Source of the DNA: a bacterium
GTDB lineage: Bacteria; Electryoneota; Electryoneia; Electryoneales; Electryoneaceae
DNA: 64,000 bases
Assembly (NCBI GenBank): GCA_963669175.1
Contig: OY769902.1
Span: 4,416,001-4,480,000, forward strand
Direction of reading: 5' to 3'
Shown piece by piece: positions 47,495-56,810 of this stretch (its first letter is position 1; each line of letters begins with the position of its first letter). The position numbers and the translations under genes were made by a program. The notes under the pieces are model-generated. The model ran no database searches. It had not been told where the DNA came from and was given only the letters and a program-made list of their open reading frames with translations.

Positions 47495-50143
47495 TTATTC
47501 TTCATCCACAAGCACTTTATGGATCATGGAAGTCAAAGCTTTCAGATCAAATGGCTTCTGGATAAAATGAACTCCCTGATCCAGAACACCATGATGCGCG
47601 ATAACATCGGCAGTGTACCCGGACATGAACAGGCACTTGATATCGGGATGGATTGACAAAAGGGTTTGTGAAAGCTCACGCCCGTTCATCTTCGGCATCA
47701 CCACATCAGTGATAAGAAGGTCAATCCGACTTTTATGTTCTCGAGCCAGGCTGATTGCCTCATCGGGATTCTTCGCCGCAAATACTGTATAGCCCAGGCT
47801 TTCAAGCATCTCCGTTACCATTGTCAGAATGGATTCTTCATCTTCCACCAGCAAAACAGTTTCTTCTCCTGATCTTGCAACAACCTGCGACTCTTTGGAT
47901 CGCGGCACTGATCTGGCGGCATGGCGTGGTAGAAAGATTTTAAAAGCTGTGCCATGATCCAGTTCACTGTAAACATTGATAAATCCATTATTCTGTTTTA
48001 CAACACCATAGACTGTAGACAGCCCGAGACCAGTCCCTTTACCCATCTCCTTTGTAGTAAAGAAAGGTTCGAATATCTGGGTGAGCGTTTCAGCATCCAT
48101 CCCCGAACCATCATCACTTATGGTAAGCTGAATGTATTCGCCGGGAATATAGTCTGCATGTTGCGTACAGTATTCATCGTCGAAAACAGCGTTAGCGGTT
48201 TCTATGGTTACACGTCCTACACGGTTGCCGATAGCGTCCCTGGCGTTGATGCAAAGGTTGGCCAGAATCTGGTCAATTTGCGAAGGATCCATATTGATCA
48301 AACCGAGGTTTTTGCCGGGAAGCCATGCCAGGTCTATATCCTCGCCGATGAGTCGGCGCAACATCTTGAGCATTCCCGCAACCGTTTCGTTCAGATTGAG
48401 CACTTTCGGGGCGATGGTTTGTTTTCGGGCGAAAGCCAGGAGCTGACGTGTCAGATCAGCGGAATGCTGGGCATACTTCTGGATTTCCTGGAGTGATGTC
48501 CGCACCGGGCTTTCCGATTCAGTTTTCATCAATGCGATCTCGGTATTCCCCAGGATCGCCTGAAGCATATTGTTGAAATCGTGCGCCACCCCGCCTGCCA
48601 ACCGTCCTATCGATTCGATCTTCTGCGATTGAACCAATTGCAACTGAAGCATTTCCTTCTCTGCTTCAGCCTGTTTCCGTTCAGTGATATCAATCCCTAC
48701 TCCCATTAATAACGGACCTTCTGGCGTCATAAGACGATTCATACTAATAAGATAAGGAATATGCTCACCTTTCTTATTCACTAAAGTGGTTTCAAACGCT
48801 CCGCCAATCCCTGTTTTGAGCAACTCCTTGGCTGCCACCAATCCCTTTTCAGCGTCCTCTGGTGATTCATGCCAATCCGGGATATACCAATCGGAAAGCT
48901 CATCGGCACTGAATCCCAGTGCGGTTTCATGGGCTTTATTCCAGCGCTTCAGATGGCAGGTTTGATCATAGAGGAAAAAGACTCCGGGCAGACTTTCCAA
49001 CAGCTTTTCAGTGAATTGCTTCTCTCGCAACAACTCGTTTTCTGCTTTTTTTCGCTCGGTAATGTCCTGTAGCGTGAACTGAAGAAGATGACGTTCCTGT
49101 GTCTTAAAGCTCATCAAATGCACTTCTGCATCCCAAAGCTCACCATCAGCACGTTGATGACGCCACTCGAAAACAACTTTCCCTTCTTTTAGTGCTTTGT
49201 TATTATAATAGGTAGATTTTTCTACAGAGGATGTGCCATCGTACTGTATGGGGGCAGAAAAGTCGAGTGGTGTCTTGCCGATAACCTCTGATCTTGACTG
49301 GAAACGATAAATTTCAACGGCGGCCGGGTTACAATCGATAAACTTGAATGTCGTAGCATCCATGACAACAATAGCAATACGAGAGCCATCAAAGACTCTC
49401 TGGCGAAATTCTTTTTCCAGTTGAAGCGCTGCCTCCATTTTTTTCCTGTCGGTGACGTCTCGCGCAGCAGCATAGATGAGATTCCCATTAGGGATGGATC
49501 GCCACTCAATCCAGCGATAGGAACCATCTTTGCACAAATAGCGATTTGTAAAATTCAAGATTTCCTTTTGAGATTTGAGTTCGTCAACAGCTTTAAGTGT
49601 AGCGTCTAAATCCTCAGGATGAACCAAATCGAAGAATTTCTTGCCTTCCAGGTCTTCCAACCGATACCCAAGCGCTCTTTCCCATTCTCTGTTCAATTGC
49701 AGGAAATGGCCCTCTGTATCCGCAATACATAACAGGTCAAGCGCAGTAAGGAAAAACCTCTCCAATTCCCCATCTTCATTTGGAAATCCTGGCTCGTTCT
49801 GCTTGTGACGGGCATATGGCGCTTTGCGCTTTTTGTCCAGCTTCTTTTCCAAATCCAGTTTGTCCAGCACCATCGCAAGCATTTGCACAGCGTTATTCAA
49901 CTCAGCCAGATCCGGCTCTGTCACTTGAATGCCAGTCGTTTGAGCTATATATCCATAAGTTGAATTTTTATTTGAAATCGGAATAATCGTTTTGCTCTGA
50001 CCTGGTTGGTTTTCTGCATGAATAAAAGTATTGGGCGCGAACAACCGGTTGAGACTTTCCACGAACAAAGCCATGGCCTCAGACCTGTCTCGTAGCTGTG
50101 ACAGATCGCGTAGAAGCTGTAAAAGTCCGCTGGCTTTGTTCAT
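47495..50143 (-). CDS. Cytoplasmic hybrid histidine kinase (3xPAS-HisKA-HATPase-REC, CckA-like)
   Basis: GRLAGGVAHDFNNML, NLCINARDA, FEPFFTTK, GTGLGL and REC LITDVVMP. Confidence 0.93.
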   Translation of the reverse strand: MNKASGLLQLLRDLSQLRDRSEAMALFVESLNRLFAPNTFIHAENQPGQSKTIIPISNKNSTYGYIAQTTGIQVTEPDLAELNNAVQMLAMVLDKLDLEKKLDKKRKAPYARHKQNEPGFPNEDGELERFFLTALDLLCIADTEGHFLQLNREWERALGYRLEDLEGKKFFDLVHPEDLDATLKAVDELKSQKEILNFTNRYLCKDGSYRWIEWRSIPNGNLIYAAARDVTDRKKMEAALQLEKEFRQRVFDGSRIAIVVMDATTFKFIDCNPAAVEIYRFQSRSEVIGKTPLDFSAPIQYDGTSSVEKSTYYNNKALKEGKVVFEWRHQRADGELWDAEVHLMSFKTQERHLLQFTLQDITERKKAENELLREKQFTEKLLESLPGVFFLYDQTCHLKRWNKAHETALGFSADELSDWYIPDWHESPEDAEKGLVAAKELLKTGIGGAFETTLVNKKGEHIPYLISMNRLMTPEGPLLMGVGIDITERKQAEAEKEMLQLQLVQSQKIESIGRLAGGVAHDFNNMLQAILGNTEIALMKTESESPVRTSLQEIQKYAQHSADLTRQLLAFARKQTIAPKVLNLNETVAGMLKMLRRLIGEDIDLAWLPGKNLGLINMDPSQIDQILANLCINARDAIGNRVGRVTIETANAVFDDEYCTQHADYIPGEYIQLTISDDGSGMDAETLTQIFEPFFTTKEMGKGTGLGLSTVYGVVKQNNGFINVYSELDHGTAFKIFLPRHAARSVPRSKESQVVARSGEETVLLVEDEESILTMVTEMLESLGYTVFAAKNPDEAISLAREHKSRIDLLITDVVMPKMNGRELSQTLLSIHPDIKCLFMSGYTADVIAHHGVLDQGVHFIQKPFDLKALTSMIHKVLVDEE

Positions 50144-50824
50144 CAGCCCTCCTTTTGTCCCGACAAACCTGGATTGCTTTTGTTCCGTATTGAATGGAAA
50201 GAAATCCCATGCAGGCTTATTACACCGAGAAACCCGTCTGCAGGCTGTGATTAGCAGTCAGCAGCCGCTATAATATGTCCTGATTGGTCATGTTCAGGAA
50301 TAATTTCAGGTAGCAGTGCAGGAATGAGTAATAACACTCTTTTTGAGGTAGGCGAAACAAAATCAGTGTCTGCTGCGAAAAAACGACGTCAATAAACCCA
50401 ATAACAAATCAATGCAACGCTCCCAAATCCCAACAGCAAAGTGCAGTTTTTTCCACCAAAAAATCCTGCTTGTTCGCCGGTATTGGATATTTCTACGATT
50501 TTTCAACTGACGAATGTTGCTCACATTGAAAAGTTATCCCGTAGTAACTCCGAACGCAATAGAATAATTTTCTAGAACATGGCCCCCATGTTCATTCACA
50601 GATCGATCCGTACGAGAACTTCAGGAAAAGAAACGTCCTGGCGCTTCATCATCGAATTGGTTCTGTCCAAGTGGAACAATCCTCCTTTTACCTCGTACAC
50701 ATACTTGAGGCAGTATCGAGTCAAACCTGTGACTTGTTTTTCATTTGTGGCTTGGCAGGAACATTTATATACTTTGTGGTATTCTACTCTACTATTCGAT
50801 TTTTTAAAGGAACTGCAAGGATAC

Positions 50825-51331
50825 ATGATGGTAGACATGCTGAGGCAACTGGTGGCGCTGGTGTTGGTAGTCGCGATGGCGACGGCCCCAGGTGTGTTAG
50901 CTACGTCCAGTCATGTAGATATGCCGGGAATCTCGTCCGAATCTGCAGTGGAAACGGTATCCTCTCCATCAGGTGCGAGTGCATCATGCTGTGCCGCATC
51001 AGGTAATCTTGACATGCCCTGCGGCTGCTGTAGCCATCCTCCGAGTTCAGGGGAAAACGACACTGAAGCTGGAAATTTCTGTCATAGTACGCATGATGGT
51101 CGCAACGAAACCGATCATCCCTGTTGTGGGTCTGATGAAGATAATGCCTGTGATTGCTCTCAGTGCGCCAGTGTGCAGGTTGTCGCGCAATCGCTGGGTA
51201 TTCTCTCTTCGAATAGTATCTTAATCACAACTCACGGTTCTGATAGAATTCACGCGGATGATAACAGCGATTGTCCGCTTCTGGCGCATCAGCGTAACCC
51301 GTATCGCCCTCCAATATTCCCTCTGTCGTAG
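50825..51331 (+). CDS. Cys/His-rich exported leader protein ending in RPP (candidate DUF2946/CruR-like arrest peptide)
   Basis: AAGGA upstream, N-terminal signal/TM (LVALVLVVAMATAP), 12 Cys including CC, CGCC and CDCSQC, C-terminal RNPYRPPIFPLS. Directly upstream of a TonB-dependent receptor. Confidence 0.7.
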   Translation: MMVDMLRQLVALVLVVAMATAPGVLATSSHVDMPGISSESAVETVSSPSGASASCCAASGNLDMPCGCCSHPPSSGENDTEAGNFCHSTHDGRNETDHPCCGSDEDNACDCSQCASVQVVAQSLGILSSNSILITTHGSDRIHADDNSDCPLLAHQRNPYRPPIFPLS

Positions 51332-51499
51332 TACTGTTCTACAACTCTGTCCCGATCTGAACGAAACATGCGCACGGCCAGCCACACCTGGTCGTCAGGT
51401 CACACGCACGAAATACGATGCGTAAGACCTGACGAAACTGAAATGCGCACTCACGTTCAGAAAAAGACAGAAACCCTACTGATTACGACAGATAGAGGG
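51319..51499 (+). promoter_or_regulatory. Long nested RNA stem-loop pairing the leader-ORF end with the receptor's SD
   Basis: Nested complementary pairs: 51319-24/51494-99, 51322-32/51482-92, 51346-51/51466-71, 51356-63/51454-61, 51369-74/51444-49, 51392-401/51426-35, 51404-08/51419-23. Confidence 0.75.
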
Positions 51500-51503
51500 C
51501 CCC

Positions 51504-53741
51504 ATGTACCATAGAAGGATATACAAGATACTTACACGTATCACAGCTATAATGGCCTTTTCGGCATTGCTTGCTGTGATACCCTTGTCCGTGATTGCTG
51601 CGGAAATAACCGGCATCGTAGTTGATGAGGATGGCTACGGTTTGGCTGGAGTGAATGTGATTGCTGTCGGCCTGGACCGTGGCGCGGCTACAGATCTGGA
51701 GGGCAACTTTTCAATTCCAAACCTGCCTGAGCGTTTGGTCACGCTTCGTGCATCCATGCTCGGCTTTAAAACCTCCGACTTGGAAGTTGATCTGGCTTCT
51801 GGTACAACAGCCACAGTTCGGATCACCCTTCCGGTTGATGCTATCGCGCTTCAGGAACTTACGTTCGAAATCGAGCGCGAACATTCCAATGTGGGCCATG
51901 ACGGCGCAGAACGTCTGGAAGTTCTGACGACAGAAGACCTTGAGACCCGTTCAAGTGATGGCGGTCTGCTATCTGCCCTTTCTGGTGGCAGCGGTCTGGA
52001 CACAAAACCCTGTGCGCTATGTGGAGCGGCGGGGATTGGGATGCAGGGACTTGATCCGAGTTATACGGAAATCACGGTTGATGGCCTGCCGGTGTTATCC
52101 GGCCTGGGCGCTTTGTACGGGCTCGATGGAATCGCTGTCTCTGACCTAAAGCAGGTAGAAGTTAGTAAAGGCAGCAGCCGTGGTGAAGGCGGAGCGGCAG
52201 CGATGGGTGGCGCTGTAAACCTTGTCACCTCCACAACAACCATGGACATGACAAACCTGCCAACGGGAAGTGTGTCACTGATGGGAGGTGAAACAGGACG
52301 GCATCGCGCCAGTGGTGAGATAAGCTTTGACGCCGCAGGAGCACCGTTACGTTTATCCGGTTCATACGCTTCCGAGCCGAGGAAGTTGGACCGTAACCAC
52401 GACGGCCTTACCGATGCACCGTCTTATGATCGTTTCAACCTTTCCGCGACACAGTCACGTCCCCTCGCAGGCGGAACGATAACCGGGCGCGTGCGTGGCT
52501 ATGCGGAAAACCGTTTTGCCGGAGAAACACGGTGGACGGAAGATGATCGTGGCAGCGCAACTGTGTATGGACGTGATATCAATACCACCCGTCTTGATGC
52601 TGGTGGACGCTTCGCTTCGGGGATGTACCCCTGGGGATCATGGTCCGCTGATGCTGCGTATGCGGCCCATCATCAGGATTCCTATTACGGTAGCACTCGC
52701 TACGATGCACGTCAGACTATCGGCATCGCCCGTTTTTCACTGAACCGTACCTGGAACCACGCTAACTCGACGCTTTTTCGAGGGCAATTCCGCTATGAAG
52801 ACTACCTCGATAACCTGAACCTGGGATCGCCGACGGACCGTATTGATCGTGTTCCGGGCTTGCTTGTGCAGCATCAATGGTCGCCGGTGATACGCTGGAA
52901 TGTCCGTGCCAGTGTGTTGAGCGAACACTATGATAACGGCGATTTCGTAGCCACACCTCGTGCGTCGTTGCTGTATTCGCCCTCCGATCACTGGACCTTC
53001 ATCGGTTCAGCCGGAACCGGTTATCGTACCGTAACCCTGTTCAGCCTAGATAAGGCCGCACACGCAGGCTTTGACAACGTGATCATACCGGCCGGACTTG
53101 AGCCGGAACGATCCGCCGGAGGTTCCCTGACCACGCAATACCAGGTCGCCACTTCCGGACGCGCCTTCCAGATCGACTTGACCGGGTATTATACACGTTT
53201 CGAAAACAAGGTCGTACTGTCGTTCGGTGATGCCCATACGGGCGCTGTTCAGTACGCCAATGCTGCGGACGCGTTCACACGTGGTGGCGAGATGCAAGCA
53301 AGCTTGGCGTTCAACGGTGGCTGGACAATACGTGCCAACGCTGCCTATACCGATGTCCAGTACCAGGATGCCGCAGGCTGGCATCGTGAAGAACTGCGTT
53401 CCCTGTACACTGCCGGACTTGCGGTTCAACATGATTGGGAATTGTACGGCCTGACTGCGGATGTCAAGGCCCATCTTTTCGGTCCCCAGGCGTTGCCGGA
53501 AGATCGTGACCGGAGCCAGTCCCCAACCTTTGTCACGGTTGATGCTGGGATCAAGAAAGCGTTCGGACGGTATTCGATTGGCCTGCAACTGGAAAACCTG
53601 ACAGACTATGTCCAACCTGATCCGGTGGTTGTTTCTGACGCTGTCAGCGGTCAGCGTATCGATGCAGCAATGATTTATGGGCCGCAACTGGGCCGTACCG
53701 CATTGTTGACCCTGTCCGCTGATTTTGGTGATTCGAAGTGA
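51504..53741 (+). CDS. TonB-dependent receptor with N-terminal carboxypeptidase-regulatory-like domain
   Basis: Signal peptide, GIVVDE..LAGVNV..GAATDLEGNF, plug PCALCG..GMQGL..VDGLP..VEVSKG..AMGGAVNL and barrel end ENLTD...YGP..GR. Confidence 0.9.
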   Translation: MYHRRIYKILTRITAIMAFSALLAVIPLSVIAAEITGIVVDEDGYGLAGVNVIAVGLDRGAATDLEGNFSIPNLPERLVTLRASMLGFKTSDLEVDLASGTTATVRITLPVDAIALQELTFEIEREHSNVGHDGAERLEVLTTEDLETRSSDGGLLSALSGGSGLDTKPCALCGAAGIGMQGLDPSYTEITVDGLPVLSGLGALYGLDGIAVSDLKQVEVSKGSSRGEGGAAAMGGAVNLVTSTTTMDMTNLPTGSVSLMGGETGRHRASGEISFDAAGAPLRLSGSYASEPRKLDRNHDGLTDAPSYDRFNLSATQSRPLAGGTITGRVRGYAENRFAGETRWTEDDRGSATVYGRDINTTRLDAGGRFASGMYPWGSWSADAAYAAHHQDSYYGSTRYDARQTIGIARFSLNRTWNHANSTLFRGQFRYEDYLDNLNLGSPTDRIDRVPGLLVQHQWSPVIRWNVRASVLSEHYDNGDFVATPRASLLYSPSDHWTFIGSAGTGYRTVTLFSLDKAAHAGFDNVIIPAGLEPERSAGGSLTTQYQVATSGRAFQIDLTGYYTRFENKVVLSFGDAHTGAVQYANAADAFTRGGEMQASLAFNGGWTIRANAAYTDVQYQDAAGWHREELRSLYTAGLAVQHDWELYGLTADVKAHLFGPQALPEDRDRSQSPTFVTVDAGIKKAFGRYSIGLQLENLTDYVQPDPVVVSDAVSGQRIDAAMIYGPQLGRTALLTLSADFGDSK

Positions 53742-53801: not shown

Positions 53802-54329
53802 ATGATGAAGAAAAGCATGTTGATTGTGACGGCTTTTGCTGTCCTGATGACCGCAGGCGTGGTCTCGAATGTGTATGCCCAGAATTGCTGCCCACACCCC
53901 TCTGACAACTGTGCGCCGGGTTCTGACAAAGCGATGCAGGAAGGCCCGAAGGAAGGGAATACATGGACAACCAGTACGGATCATCAGGAACGGTTCACCT
54001 GCCCGGTCTGCAACATGATTCATACGGTTGATGAAGCCCAGGCGGTAGCTGTGATTGATGGTGAGAAGTACTACCTCTGCCATCCGTCCGAACAGGCGAA
54101 ACTGCGTGCCGGGAAAGAAACCTATCTCGGTGAACAGTTCTGGGTGCCGGGTAATCTTGAAGAGTGGTCGAAAAACGGCGCTACCTTCAGGGATCCGGTC
54201 AATGGCCAGGTCGCAACACTGTCCGACAATACACCATCATGCCAGATCGGCCATATGCGTTATTTCTTCGTTTCCGAAGAAACCAAGGCACAGTTCGAAT
54301 CGAAGAATAATACGGCTGACGCATCGTAA
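53802..54329 (+). CDS. Exported protein with two YHS-like domains
   Basis: Signal peptide then NCCPH..C. CPVCNM...DGEKYYLC and DPVNG...RYFFVSEETKAQF are YHS-like. Confidence 0.72.
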   Translation: MMKKSMLIVTAFAVLMTAGVVSNVYAQNCCPHPSDNCAPGSDKAMQEGPKEGNTWTTSTDHQERFTCPVCNMIHTVDEAQAVAVIDGEKYYLCHPSEQAKLRAGKETYLGEQFWVPGNLEEWSKNGATFRDPVNGQVATLSDNTPSCQIGHMRYFFVSEETKAQFESKNNTADAS

Positions 54330-55677: not shown

Positions 55678-56505
55678 TCATGCTGCTTCTGTTCGTTGTG
55701 TTTGCCAGTATACTTGATCTGGTGTTTGACTGTTCAGCGCCTGGTGAGGTCGCTTTTCGTTGTAGAATGTAAAATACTCTCCAATACCCTTTTCTGCCTC
55801 ACGCAAGGTCTCGTAACATTTCAGATACACATCCTCATGTTTCAGGGATCGCCACAGACGCTCGATGAACCGATTGTCTACCCAGCGGCCTTTGCCGTCC
55901 ATGCTGATCTTAATCCCTTCATCCTGCAACCGTGACGTAAACGCCACGCTGGTAAACTGTGCGCCCTGATCAGTATTGAAAATTTCCGGTGCGCCATATT
56001 TCGCCAACGCTTCGTTCAACGCGTCCACGCAAAACAGGTGATCCATCGTGTTGCTCAGCCGCCAGGACAGCACTTTACGGCTGTGCCAATCCATGATCGC
56101 CACCAAATATCCGAAGCCTCGTGCAAGCGGAATGTACGTGATATCAGTACACCAAACCTGATTGGGACGGTCAATCGTCAACCCACGCAACAGGTAGGGA
56201 AAGATCGTATGTCCCGGTGCGGGGTGACTGGTGCGTTTCTTCTTCGGATACACCGTATAGATCCCCAGGATACGCATCAGACGACGCACCTTCTTCCGAC
56301 AGATCTTGTAACCTTCGCCACGCAACAGGTCACGCAACATCCGTGACCCCGCGAAAGGATAAACCAAGTGCAACTCATCCAACCGGCGCAACAGCGTCAA
56401 ATCTCGCTCCTTCAACGGTTTCGGCCTGTAATACGCCGTTGATCGAGGAACAGACAGCAAGGCACACTGCTTCGTGACCGGGAGTGTCTCGGTGGGCGTG
56501 ATCAT
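55678..56505 (-). CDS. IS3 transposase OrfB (integrase core)
   Basis: WCTDITY, FNTDQG.QF and [13 protein letters not shown] (DDE). Confidence 0.95.
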
Positions 56506-56810
56506 CGTTTTACGCTCGGCCTTGCCCCAGGTCCGAGCACACGTGATAAAAAATCACGTTCCATCGTCAACTGACCGATCTTGGCATGCAGCTCCTTGAT
56601 CTCTGCGGCGGTATCATCCTGATGCACACCACGCTTGCCAGCGAAAAGACCTTCCGCCTGCTCAAGCAACTGCTTCTTCCATTGTACGATCTGGTTGGGG
56701 TGAACATCGAACTGCGAGGCCAGTTCCGAAATCGTCTTGTCACCCTTGACGGCGGCAAGCGCTACCGATGCCTTGAACTGCGCGGTTAACTTTCTGCGGG
56801 ATCGCTTCAT
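56502..56810 (-). CDS. IS3 transposase OrfA (HTH)
   Basis: FKASVAL...ELASQFDVHPNQI..WK...LHAKIGQLTMERDFL. T-TTT-TTA at 56553-56547 has an open -1 frame into OrfB. Confidence 0.92.
   Translation of the reverse strand: MKRSRRKLTAQFKASVALAAVKGDKTISELASQFDVHPNQIVQWKKQLLEQAEGLFAGKRGVHQDDTAAEIKELHAKIGQLTMERDFLSRVLGPGARPSVKR

Follow-up and report, generated by a model that had tools for sequence, protein, structure and literature searches.

A Cys-rich leader predicted to mask the Shine-Dalgarno sequence of a TonB-dependent receptor: a candidate CutF/CruR-like co-translational switch in the Electryoneaceae

A 64,000-nucleotide stretch of DNA from a bacterium of the Electryoneaceae (GenBank assembly GCA_963669175.1, contig OY769902.1, positions 4,416,001 to 4,480,000; hereafter the window) contains a 168-aa, Cys-rich open reading frame (ORF), the "leader", directly upstream of the gene of a TonB-dependent receptor. 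The end of the leader was predicted to pair with the Shine-Dalgarno (SD) sequence of the receptor at seven orthologous loci, and the leader proteins shared a single invariant proline near the C-terminus, held at a fixed distance behind a Cys cluster. We lean slightly towards reading this arrangement as a co-translational switch similar to CutF and CruR, in which a ribosome pausing at the proline motif would unmask the SD of the receptor.

The leader ORF (50825-51331; coordinates are those of the window, + strand unless noted) had a hydrophobic N-terminus, 12 Cys (CC, CGCC, CC, and CDCSQC), and the C-terminal end NPYRPPIFPLS. A first-pass annotation of the window had pointed out the 168-aa ORF, its 12 Cys, and an RPP at 51305-51313 five codons before the stop, and all of these were present. 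The RPP codons were CGC (51305-07), CCT (51308-10), and CCA (51311-13), and the stop codon TAG was located five codons on, at 51329-31. The homologues aligned from residue 2, and the second ATG, at 50828, may be the start. In the public gene call (P0002), the leader had 250 aa with the start at 50579 (window 50579-51331). This call was probably over-extended, because the homologues backed the 167/168-aa start; a terminator-like hairpin (50717-50736) was located in its extra part.

The leader family was described on an alignment of eight sequences (A4), consisting of the leaders of the seven loci and the metagenomic homologue P0004, which ended in LFRPPILILS and was found by an exhaustive hidden Markov model (HMM) search; the RNA comparisons were made on the seven loci. 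By inspection, all eight members started with a signal-like N-terminus composed of a basic residue, a hydrophobic run of 15-20 residues, and small residues (residues 1-27 in the window leader, 50825-50905). The acidic Cys-rich zone of the window leader covered residues 55-114 (50987-51166) and ended with C111-S-Q-C114 (51155-51166). The length of this zone was highly variable in the family, with gaps in 64 of the 96 alignment columns and 9-12 Cys per protein, and its end was a CxxC in five members and a CxCxC, a CxC, or a single Cys in the rest. The spacer that followed (51167-51301) had the lowest identity of all zones (mean 0.18) and gaps in just 3 of 45 columns, so that its length was fixed and its sequence poorly conserved. 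The distance from the Cys of the last cluster (column 114) to the invariant Pro was 46-48 residues in all eight proteins, similar to a "ruler". The ruler ended at the tail motif [Y/F/D]-[R/H]-[P/V/I]-P (Y-R-P-P at 51302-51313 in the window), which was present as [YF]RPP in three members, DHPP in two, and DH[VI]P in three, and was followed by 4-6 residues. An Arg or His was located two residues ahead of the invariant Pro in every member. Neither RAPP nor RGPP was found in any of the eight, PP was found in five, and the last Pro in all, P163 of the window leader (51311-51313) being the sole invariant residue of the tail. RPP, where the first-pass annotation had placed the stall, was not the conserved element and was kept only in the three [YF]RPP members. 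Over the seven loci, the invariant Pro was encoded by CCA, CCC, CCG, CCG, CCC, CCT, and CCG; with four different codons in use, the Pro must have been selected at the protein level. An AlphaFold model, calculated from the alignment eight sequences deep, contained a confident helix at residues 2-23 alone, and the predicted local distance difference test score (pLDDT) was below 50 for 129 of 168 residues. The mature leader is therefore predicted to be disordered.

The leader, the receptor (51504-53741), and an exported protein with two YHS-like domains (53802-54329 in the window) formed a three-gene operon in seven orthologous loci from five genera. When the leader protein was used as the query against 41 related genomes, a single homologue was found, in G006; it had 160 aa, was 29% identical, ended in TPYRPPITSLS, and was located 145 nt upstream of a 71%-identical receptor. 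The divergent leaders came to light when the DNA ahead of each receptor orthologue of the taxonomic family was inspected. Altogether, six other genomes of four other genera had a Cys-rich leader with a signal-like N-terminus immediately ahead of a receptor orthologue (46-71% identity), which supported the earlier placement of a leader ahead of the receptor. The tails of the divergent leaders were SIDHVPKHSLS in both G014 and G013, SIDHIPILSIS in G011, NIDHPPASLSFS in G009, and SLDHPPQASV in G008, each followed by the stop codon. Searches of wider collections returned few sequences. A word-indexed protein search with P0001 found itself alone, the protein search with A2 found P0002 and P0004, and that with A4 found P0002, P0006, and P0007. 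Of the three matches obtained when 1.84 billion representatives were searched exhaustively with the HMM, one, the 1312-aa repeat protein P0003, was discarded as spurious. A search of genome contigs gave a single locus with 29% identity over residues 1-168, which resembled the G006 locus by its numbers, and two metagenome scans for the leader locus gave no match.

The receptor was composed of CarboxypepD_reg, Plug, and barrel domains. Each of eight sequences of the receptor family contained exactly two Cys, both in the invariant plug motif PCALCG(A/S)AG(I/V)GMQGLD, and the family also held four invariant His and two invariant internal Met residues. The PCALCG motif is a candidate metal site. 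The third gene encoded the exported protein with two YHS-like domains in all seven loci, so that each locus combined a receptor with a plug CxxC and a tandem-YHS protein, as in a metal-homeostasis operon. The YHS family (PF04945) matched six of the seven orthologues (best E 2.3e-12), the copy of the window itself having no match at E <= 0.1, and a search of solved structures with the YHS protein gave nothing below E 0.29. Because of the YHS domains and the plug CxxC, the operon may be an import system for a thiophilic metal.

The RNA between the leader and the receptor was predicted to be highly structured. The region 51290-51520 folded as one nested "rod" of 195 nt with an energy of -81.7 kcal/mol, compared with a mean of -49.8 kcal/mol for 200 dinucleotide shuffles (z -8.54), none of which was as stable; the single nested rod described in the first-pass annotation was thereby reproduced. 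The rod was closed by a basal helix of 11 bp between 51322-51332, which took in the final three codons, the stop codon, and one further base, and 51482-51492. For the receptor SD GAGGG (51495-51499), located next to this helix and 4 nt ahead of the ATG at 51504, the unpaired probability in the free RNA was 0.00. The minimum-energy structure paired the longer form of the SD, GAGGGC (51495-51500), with GCCCUC at 51306-51311, which belongs to the Arg-Pro-Pro codons and contains the first anti-SD copy, CCCUC (51307-51311). A second CCCUC was located within the Phe-Pro-Leu codons (51319-51323), and pairing with this copy took over when the first partner was blocked (-75.5 versus -81.7 kcal/mol). 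Blocking both copies released two of the five SD bases, whereas the other three were weakly paired again (-70.3 kcal/mol). The earlier proposal that the base of the rod hides the receptor SD with the last codons of the leader thus held, but 51319-24, which had been named as the partner, was the alternative and 51306-51311 the main one. In a search of 49500-52500 against Rfam, nothing relevant was found; the lone match, SECIS_1 inside the leader ORF, scored 22.5 bits against a cut-off of 35 and was taken as chance. Simple scans revealed no promoter-like or terminator-like site in the 172-nt intergenic region, including the independent internal promoter that the first-pass annotation had considered, and no 9-12-mer common to at least four of the seven upstream regions was found that could represent an upstream operator.

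Masking of the SD, as in the RNA switches of the CutF and SecM type, was common to all seven loci. In each of them the minimum-energy fold paired the last leader codons and the stop codon with the SD region of the receptor, and the partition function gave the SD 4-mer an unpaired probability of 0.00-0.09. The masking helix closed the entire intergenic region, which measured 63-179 nt and was otherwise unrelated between genera; the large rod itself, which had been regarded as part of the mechanism, was conserved neither in size nor in sequence. In six loci the SD paired mainly with CCUC, CUCC, or UCCU, and this partner lay at +6 to +11 nt when counted from the first base of the invariant Pro codon. 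In the window, the SD paired mainly with the CCUC within the RPP codons; its second copy was located at +8 to +12 and matched the place of the partner in the other six loci. The paired sequences varied between genera, for example GUCGUA/UACGAC, CUGUCGU/AUGACAG, and CUCCGUC/GACGGAG, and in G009 the leader codons CCC UUU CAU UCU C paired with GAGAUUGAAAGG. The 3' ends were misaligned in the MAFFT alignment of the seven intergenic regions (A6), and the pairs were judged by duplex energies and partner offsets instead. Cognate duplexes of leader tail and SD region had a mean of -17.2 kcal/mol compared with -11.9 kcal/mol for 42 non-cognate duplexes, and none of 5000 permutations reached the observed sum, although these figures overstate independence because the loci are kin from one taxonomic family. 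When each SD region was shuffled 500 times, 0 to 89 shuffles reached the observed energy, the weakest case being G011, whose start codon was uncertain. The value of the window, -18.6, was reached by 3 of 418 neighbour pairs of its genome, the window included; these were crude same-strand pairs with a gap of 40-250 nt and an SD-like word. The organism does use SD sequences, an SD-like 4-mer being located ahead of 44% of long ORFs compared with 11% in a control window.

These features suggest the following mechanism. In the free mRNA, the receptor SD would be locked in a long-range helix whose 5' strand is formed by the leader's own last codons, and translation of the receptor would therefore be possible only as long as the leader's end is occupied by a ribosome. 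The conserved [Y/F/D]-[R/H]-[P/V/I]-P motif may slow or arrest the ribosome at this place. Because the Cys cluster is fixed 46-48 residues behind the motif, it would then have just left the exit tunnel or be within the Sec channel, where it could set the dwell of the ribosome through binding of a thiophilic metal or formation of disulfides. The anti-SD lies within the footprint of a ribosome holding the conserved Pro in the P or A site, and the SD would have to be freed. The metal-replete state is the probable "off" state. When the footprint was modelled by forcing -12 to +15 nt to be single-stranded at the Pro motif, the unpaired probability of the SD core increased from about 0 to 0.14-0.67. 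In the window, the unpaired probability of the SD was 0.01 with a terminating ribosome and 0.30 with a ribosome at RPP. A terminating ribosome leaves anti-SD copy 1 uncovered, whereas a ribosome at RPP covers both copies, which for this locus speaks more for a switch that depends on a pause than for simple coupling through termination.

Several observations weighed against the pausing switch. Since any ribosome reaching the stop codon also melts the helix, no pause is strictly needed. The opening of the SD core under the stalled footprint was only partial at equilibrium, to just 0.14-0.67, and the accessibility of the whole site from -18 to +3 increased upon stalling in three of the seven loci and decreased in four, because the freed strand found other partners at equilibrium. 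In the protein, CxxC was lacking in three of the eight members, and three members had a single Pro (DHVP or DHIP), which rules out polyproline stalling as the general mechanism. Relative to the RAPP/RGPP arrest motif, the Arg was shifted by one position, and the Pro-rich end of CutF itself was not a strong stall alone, according to the accessible part of that report (PMC9973294). None of the eight members matched DUF2946 (cut-off 23.7 bits) or any Pfam family at E <= 10, and an hhalign comparison of A2 with A3, built from four DUF2946-like leaders of the same phylum, namely L017, L018, L039, and L015, gave a probability of 0.45% and an E of 0.13 with only the CxxC aligned. Additionally, the receptor of G001 (48% identity) had no such leader ORF within 700 nt, and the seven loci, all from one taxonomic family, were not independent.

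The main rival explanation was plain translational coupling, in which the leader would be a periplasmic Cys-rich metal-binding protein that serves the receptor and the YHS protein as a chaperone or buffer, and the helix would tie the output of the receptor to the translation of the leader with neither a programmed pause nor nascent-chain sensing. We regard this as rather unlikely. It agrees with the finding that, at every locus, the helix's 5' strand was also covered by a terminating ribosome, with the 9-12 Cys of each leader protein, with the metal-related look of the operon partners (the YHS domains and the invariant plug CxxC of the receptor), and with a tail motif that fits no known arrest motif. 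However, a spacer of 46-48 residues that is fixed in length, free in sequence, and ends at an invariant Pro is difficult to reconcile with a protein that is folded or resembles metallothionein, and the Cys zone varied greatly in length within a protein modelled as disordered. In the window, moreover, termination alone would leave anti-SD copy 1 free to mask the SD again. Control at the level of transcription, as in CruR, was considered improbable. Here the ribosome at the end of the leader would mainly block Rho, its release would be followed by Rho-dependent termination before the receptor, and masking of the SD would be secondary. This is the mechanism published for the one studied leader ahead of a TonB transporter, as given in the accessible part of the report (PMC9426467). 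Over the final 120 nt of the leader, C exceeded G in all seven loci (C 0.28-0.41, G 0.17-0.28), and over the 5' half of the intergenic region it did so in six, with a tie in G008. On the other hand, the intergenic RNA was strongly structured (z -8.5 in the window and -3.8 in G006), which disfavours the loading of Rho, and the element conserved across the seven loci was the SD pairing, not a C-rich unstructured tract.

It is very improbable that the rod is a mobile palindromic insertion between two genes, such as a repetitive extragenic palindrome (REP) or a miniature inverted-repeat transposable element (MITE), with no regulatory meaning, but the tip of the rod did belong to a repeat family. 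The perfect 10-bp central pair noted in the first-pass annotation had its arms in place (51392-51408 and 51419-51435), and these belonged to a 50-nt REP-like hairpin (51391-51440; -26.1 kcal/mol by itself) that was a genome-specific dispersed repeat and not a feature of the locus. When 51320-51510 (191 nt) was compared with the genome, 25 matches were found, namely the full-length self match and 24 others that covered positions 72-124 of the query alone (window 51391-51443). The hairpin occurred dispersed as single copies and in tandem arrays, one with 13 copies of a 49-nt unit at 96% matches (L051:189-827, G000:C1:5393888-5394526) and another with 6.7 copies of a 26-nt half-unit (L052:300-472). 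The arrays were ruled out as clustered regularly interspaced short palindromic repeats (CRISPR), because their periods were too short and spacers were absent. The same arms closed the inner 124-nt part of a MITE-like element of ~340 bp with terminal inverted repeats of ~24 bp, which had 54 copies in G000:C1 (for example L050, G000:C1:2709900-2710700). Rfam gave nothing relevant on three repeat loci. The repeat therefore resembled REP-like elements and MITEs as a short, GC-rich, dispersed palindrome that is also found in tandem, and differed from them in having no Rfam family match. Only the central 50 nt of the rod were repeated, however. The arm motif occurred in 8 of 52 fetched loci, all eight from this genome, and in none of the orthologous loci, which kept the basal SD-masking helix, so that a mobile origin was refuted for the base of the rod. 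Judged from the sequence, the "perfect 10-bp" centre appears to be an incidental insertion of a genome-specific repeat at the tip, which explains much of the size and stability of the rod.

Two other elements of the window were recorded near the operon. A hybrid histidine kinase with three PAS, HisKA, HATPase, and receiver domains (47495-50143, - strand) was located 680 nt upstream of the leader in divergent orientation; its place beside the leader was not kept in G006, which had an unrelated membrane protein of ~441 aa upstream instead. On the other side, two overlapping ORFs of 102 aa and 275 aa (55678-56810, - strand) resembled an IS3-family transposase pair, as judged from their translations alone.

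According to the accessible parts of the literature, CruR and CutF are the two studied leader peptides that sense metals on the ribosome, and others are known from motif surveys keyed to RAPP/RGPP. The family described here shared the layout and the ruler length of these two leaders, yet it escaped both the Pfam model and the motif, which implies that such searches undercount these switches. The seven natural variants, with an anti-SD at a fixed distance from one invariant Pro, form a compact test case. The window locus adds two redundant anti-SD copies, with which a paused and a terminating ribosome are predicted to differ in outcome. The as yet uncharacterised receptor family, which has the plug PCALCG and a tandem-YHS partner, is a candidate for the import of a thiophilic metal.

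The kinship with CruR and CutF that had been suggested in the first-pass annotation was supported by the layout (putative export, Cys motif, fixed ruler, and C-terminal Pro) but not by homology to DUF2946, for which both Pfam and hhalign were negative. Six-frame scans with DUF2946 reached the Pfam cut-off in none of 79 genomes of the phylum. Below this threshold, 24 matches were found in 19 genomes besides that of the window, and most of them were judged to be noise, because control genomes gave equal E-values. Four of the matches (L017, L018, L035, and L039), together with L015 in the genome of the window, resembled real leaders ending in RAPP, RGPP, or RPP, such as RAPPLTTA in L017, RAPPAR in L039, ERPPRLYS in L018, and RGPPLS in L015. 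The L015 ORF (L015:1480-1809, G000:C1:1280911-1281240, +) encoded a leader-like protein of 109 aa with a sub-threshold DUF2946 score of 18.6 bits and the end QRGPPLS; downstream of it came 220 nt of intergenic DNA, then a gene for a His-rich lipoprotein-like product, and then a further TonB receptor of the CarboxypepD_reg kind. The L017 leader (L017:1414-1704, in G046) had 96 aa with CPIC, 44 residues by hand count, and then RAPPLTTA, and was located ~160 nt upstream of a CarboxypepD_reg TonB receptor (from L017:1865). This receptor was rejected as an orthologue of that of the window, with 22% identity and no CALCG. The L017 leader therefore showed that leaders of the RAPP type also occur in this phylum, with scores under the Pfam cut-off. 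In a language-model atlas, a CzcI/DUF2946 cluster was found at 0.91 with 97 of 256 features shared, which is a weak lead only. By its layout, the leader would work like CutF and CruR, and it is not assigned to the DUF2946 family. Tentatively, and with more doubt than belief, the family could be regarded as a separate class of nascent-chain sensor that arose independently of DUF2946, with a multi-Cys sensor, a ruler of 46-48 residues, an arrest core [Y/F/D]-[R/H]-[P/V/I]-P without RAPP or a second Pro, and an anti-SD in the codons 6-11 nt downstream or, sometimes, in the Pro codons. If so, the Cys-ruler-Pro design would be a convergent solution for metal-gated import.

In classical translational coupling, a long-range helix hides the downstream ribosome-binding site, as in the coat and replicase genes of RNA phages. 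The present locus is similar in that the end of the upstream frame pairs with the SD of the next gene, which a translating ribosome would open, and it differs in that the upstream frame adds a ruler and an invariant Pro motif, with the anti-SD within the footprint of a ribosome at that motif. The published systems are compared here as described in the accessible parts of the reports. The arrest peptides with RAPP/RGPP (ApdA, ApdP, and SecM-like RAGP) and the upstream ORFs (uORFs) with such motifs, which a RAPP/RGPP-keyed survey reported ahead of TonB- and Cu-related genes (PMC12992588), resemble our family, the members of which are small, putatively secreted proteins with a Pro motif near the C-terminus, encoded upstream of a TonB-related gene. 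The register R-[A/G]-P-P, in which the Arg precedes the A-site Pro by three residues, is not found here, and a search for the RAPP/RGPP motif would miss all eight members.

CruR (Bp2923 of Bordetella pertussis), the prototype of Pfam DUF2946 (PF11162), is exported and contains CXXC at residues 90-93 and RAPP at 139-142, a spacing kept within 1-2 residues in more than 2000 DUF2946 proteins; it is followed by an intergenic region of 162 nt and a TonB transporter, and its stall counteracts Rho (PMC9426467). CruR and the window leader, which is putatively exported, each belong to a three-gene operon in which a TonB transporter is the next gene, with intergenic regions of 162 and 172 nt. Each also has a CxxC, and by hand count the ruler of each spans 48 residues from final Cys to final Pro. 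They differ in that the RAPP of CruR is three residues from its end and its control is by Rho-dependent termination, whereas the window leader has an Arg adjoining PP, five residues after it, and SD masking as the conserved RNA feature. CutF of Rhodobacter capsulatus (cutFOG), a DUF2946-like protein, requires its Sec signal for control and has 45 residues between its Cys and Pro motifs, and a stem-loop shields the SD of cutO (PMC9973294). In common with the present family, it has a Cys motif ~45 residues ahead of a C-terminal Pro motif, an intergenic stem-loop shielding the SD of the next gene, and a mature protein that is unstable or unstructured, as predicted for the leader here; its Sec-type signal peptide has a putative counterpart in the signal-like N-terminus of the family. 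The target of CutF is a multicopper oxidase, unlike the TonB-dependent importer here. The Cys zone of our family is much longer (9-12 Cys), its tail is [YF]RPP, DHPP, or DH[VI]P, the 5' strand of its masking helix lies within the last codons of the leader, and no sequence homology with CutF was detected. The leader may therefore combine the principle of CutF, in which a stall unmasks an SD, with a target of the CruR type, a TonB transporter.

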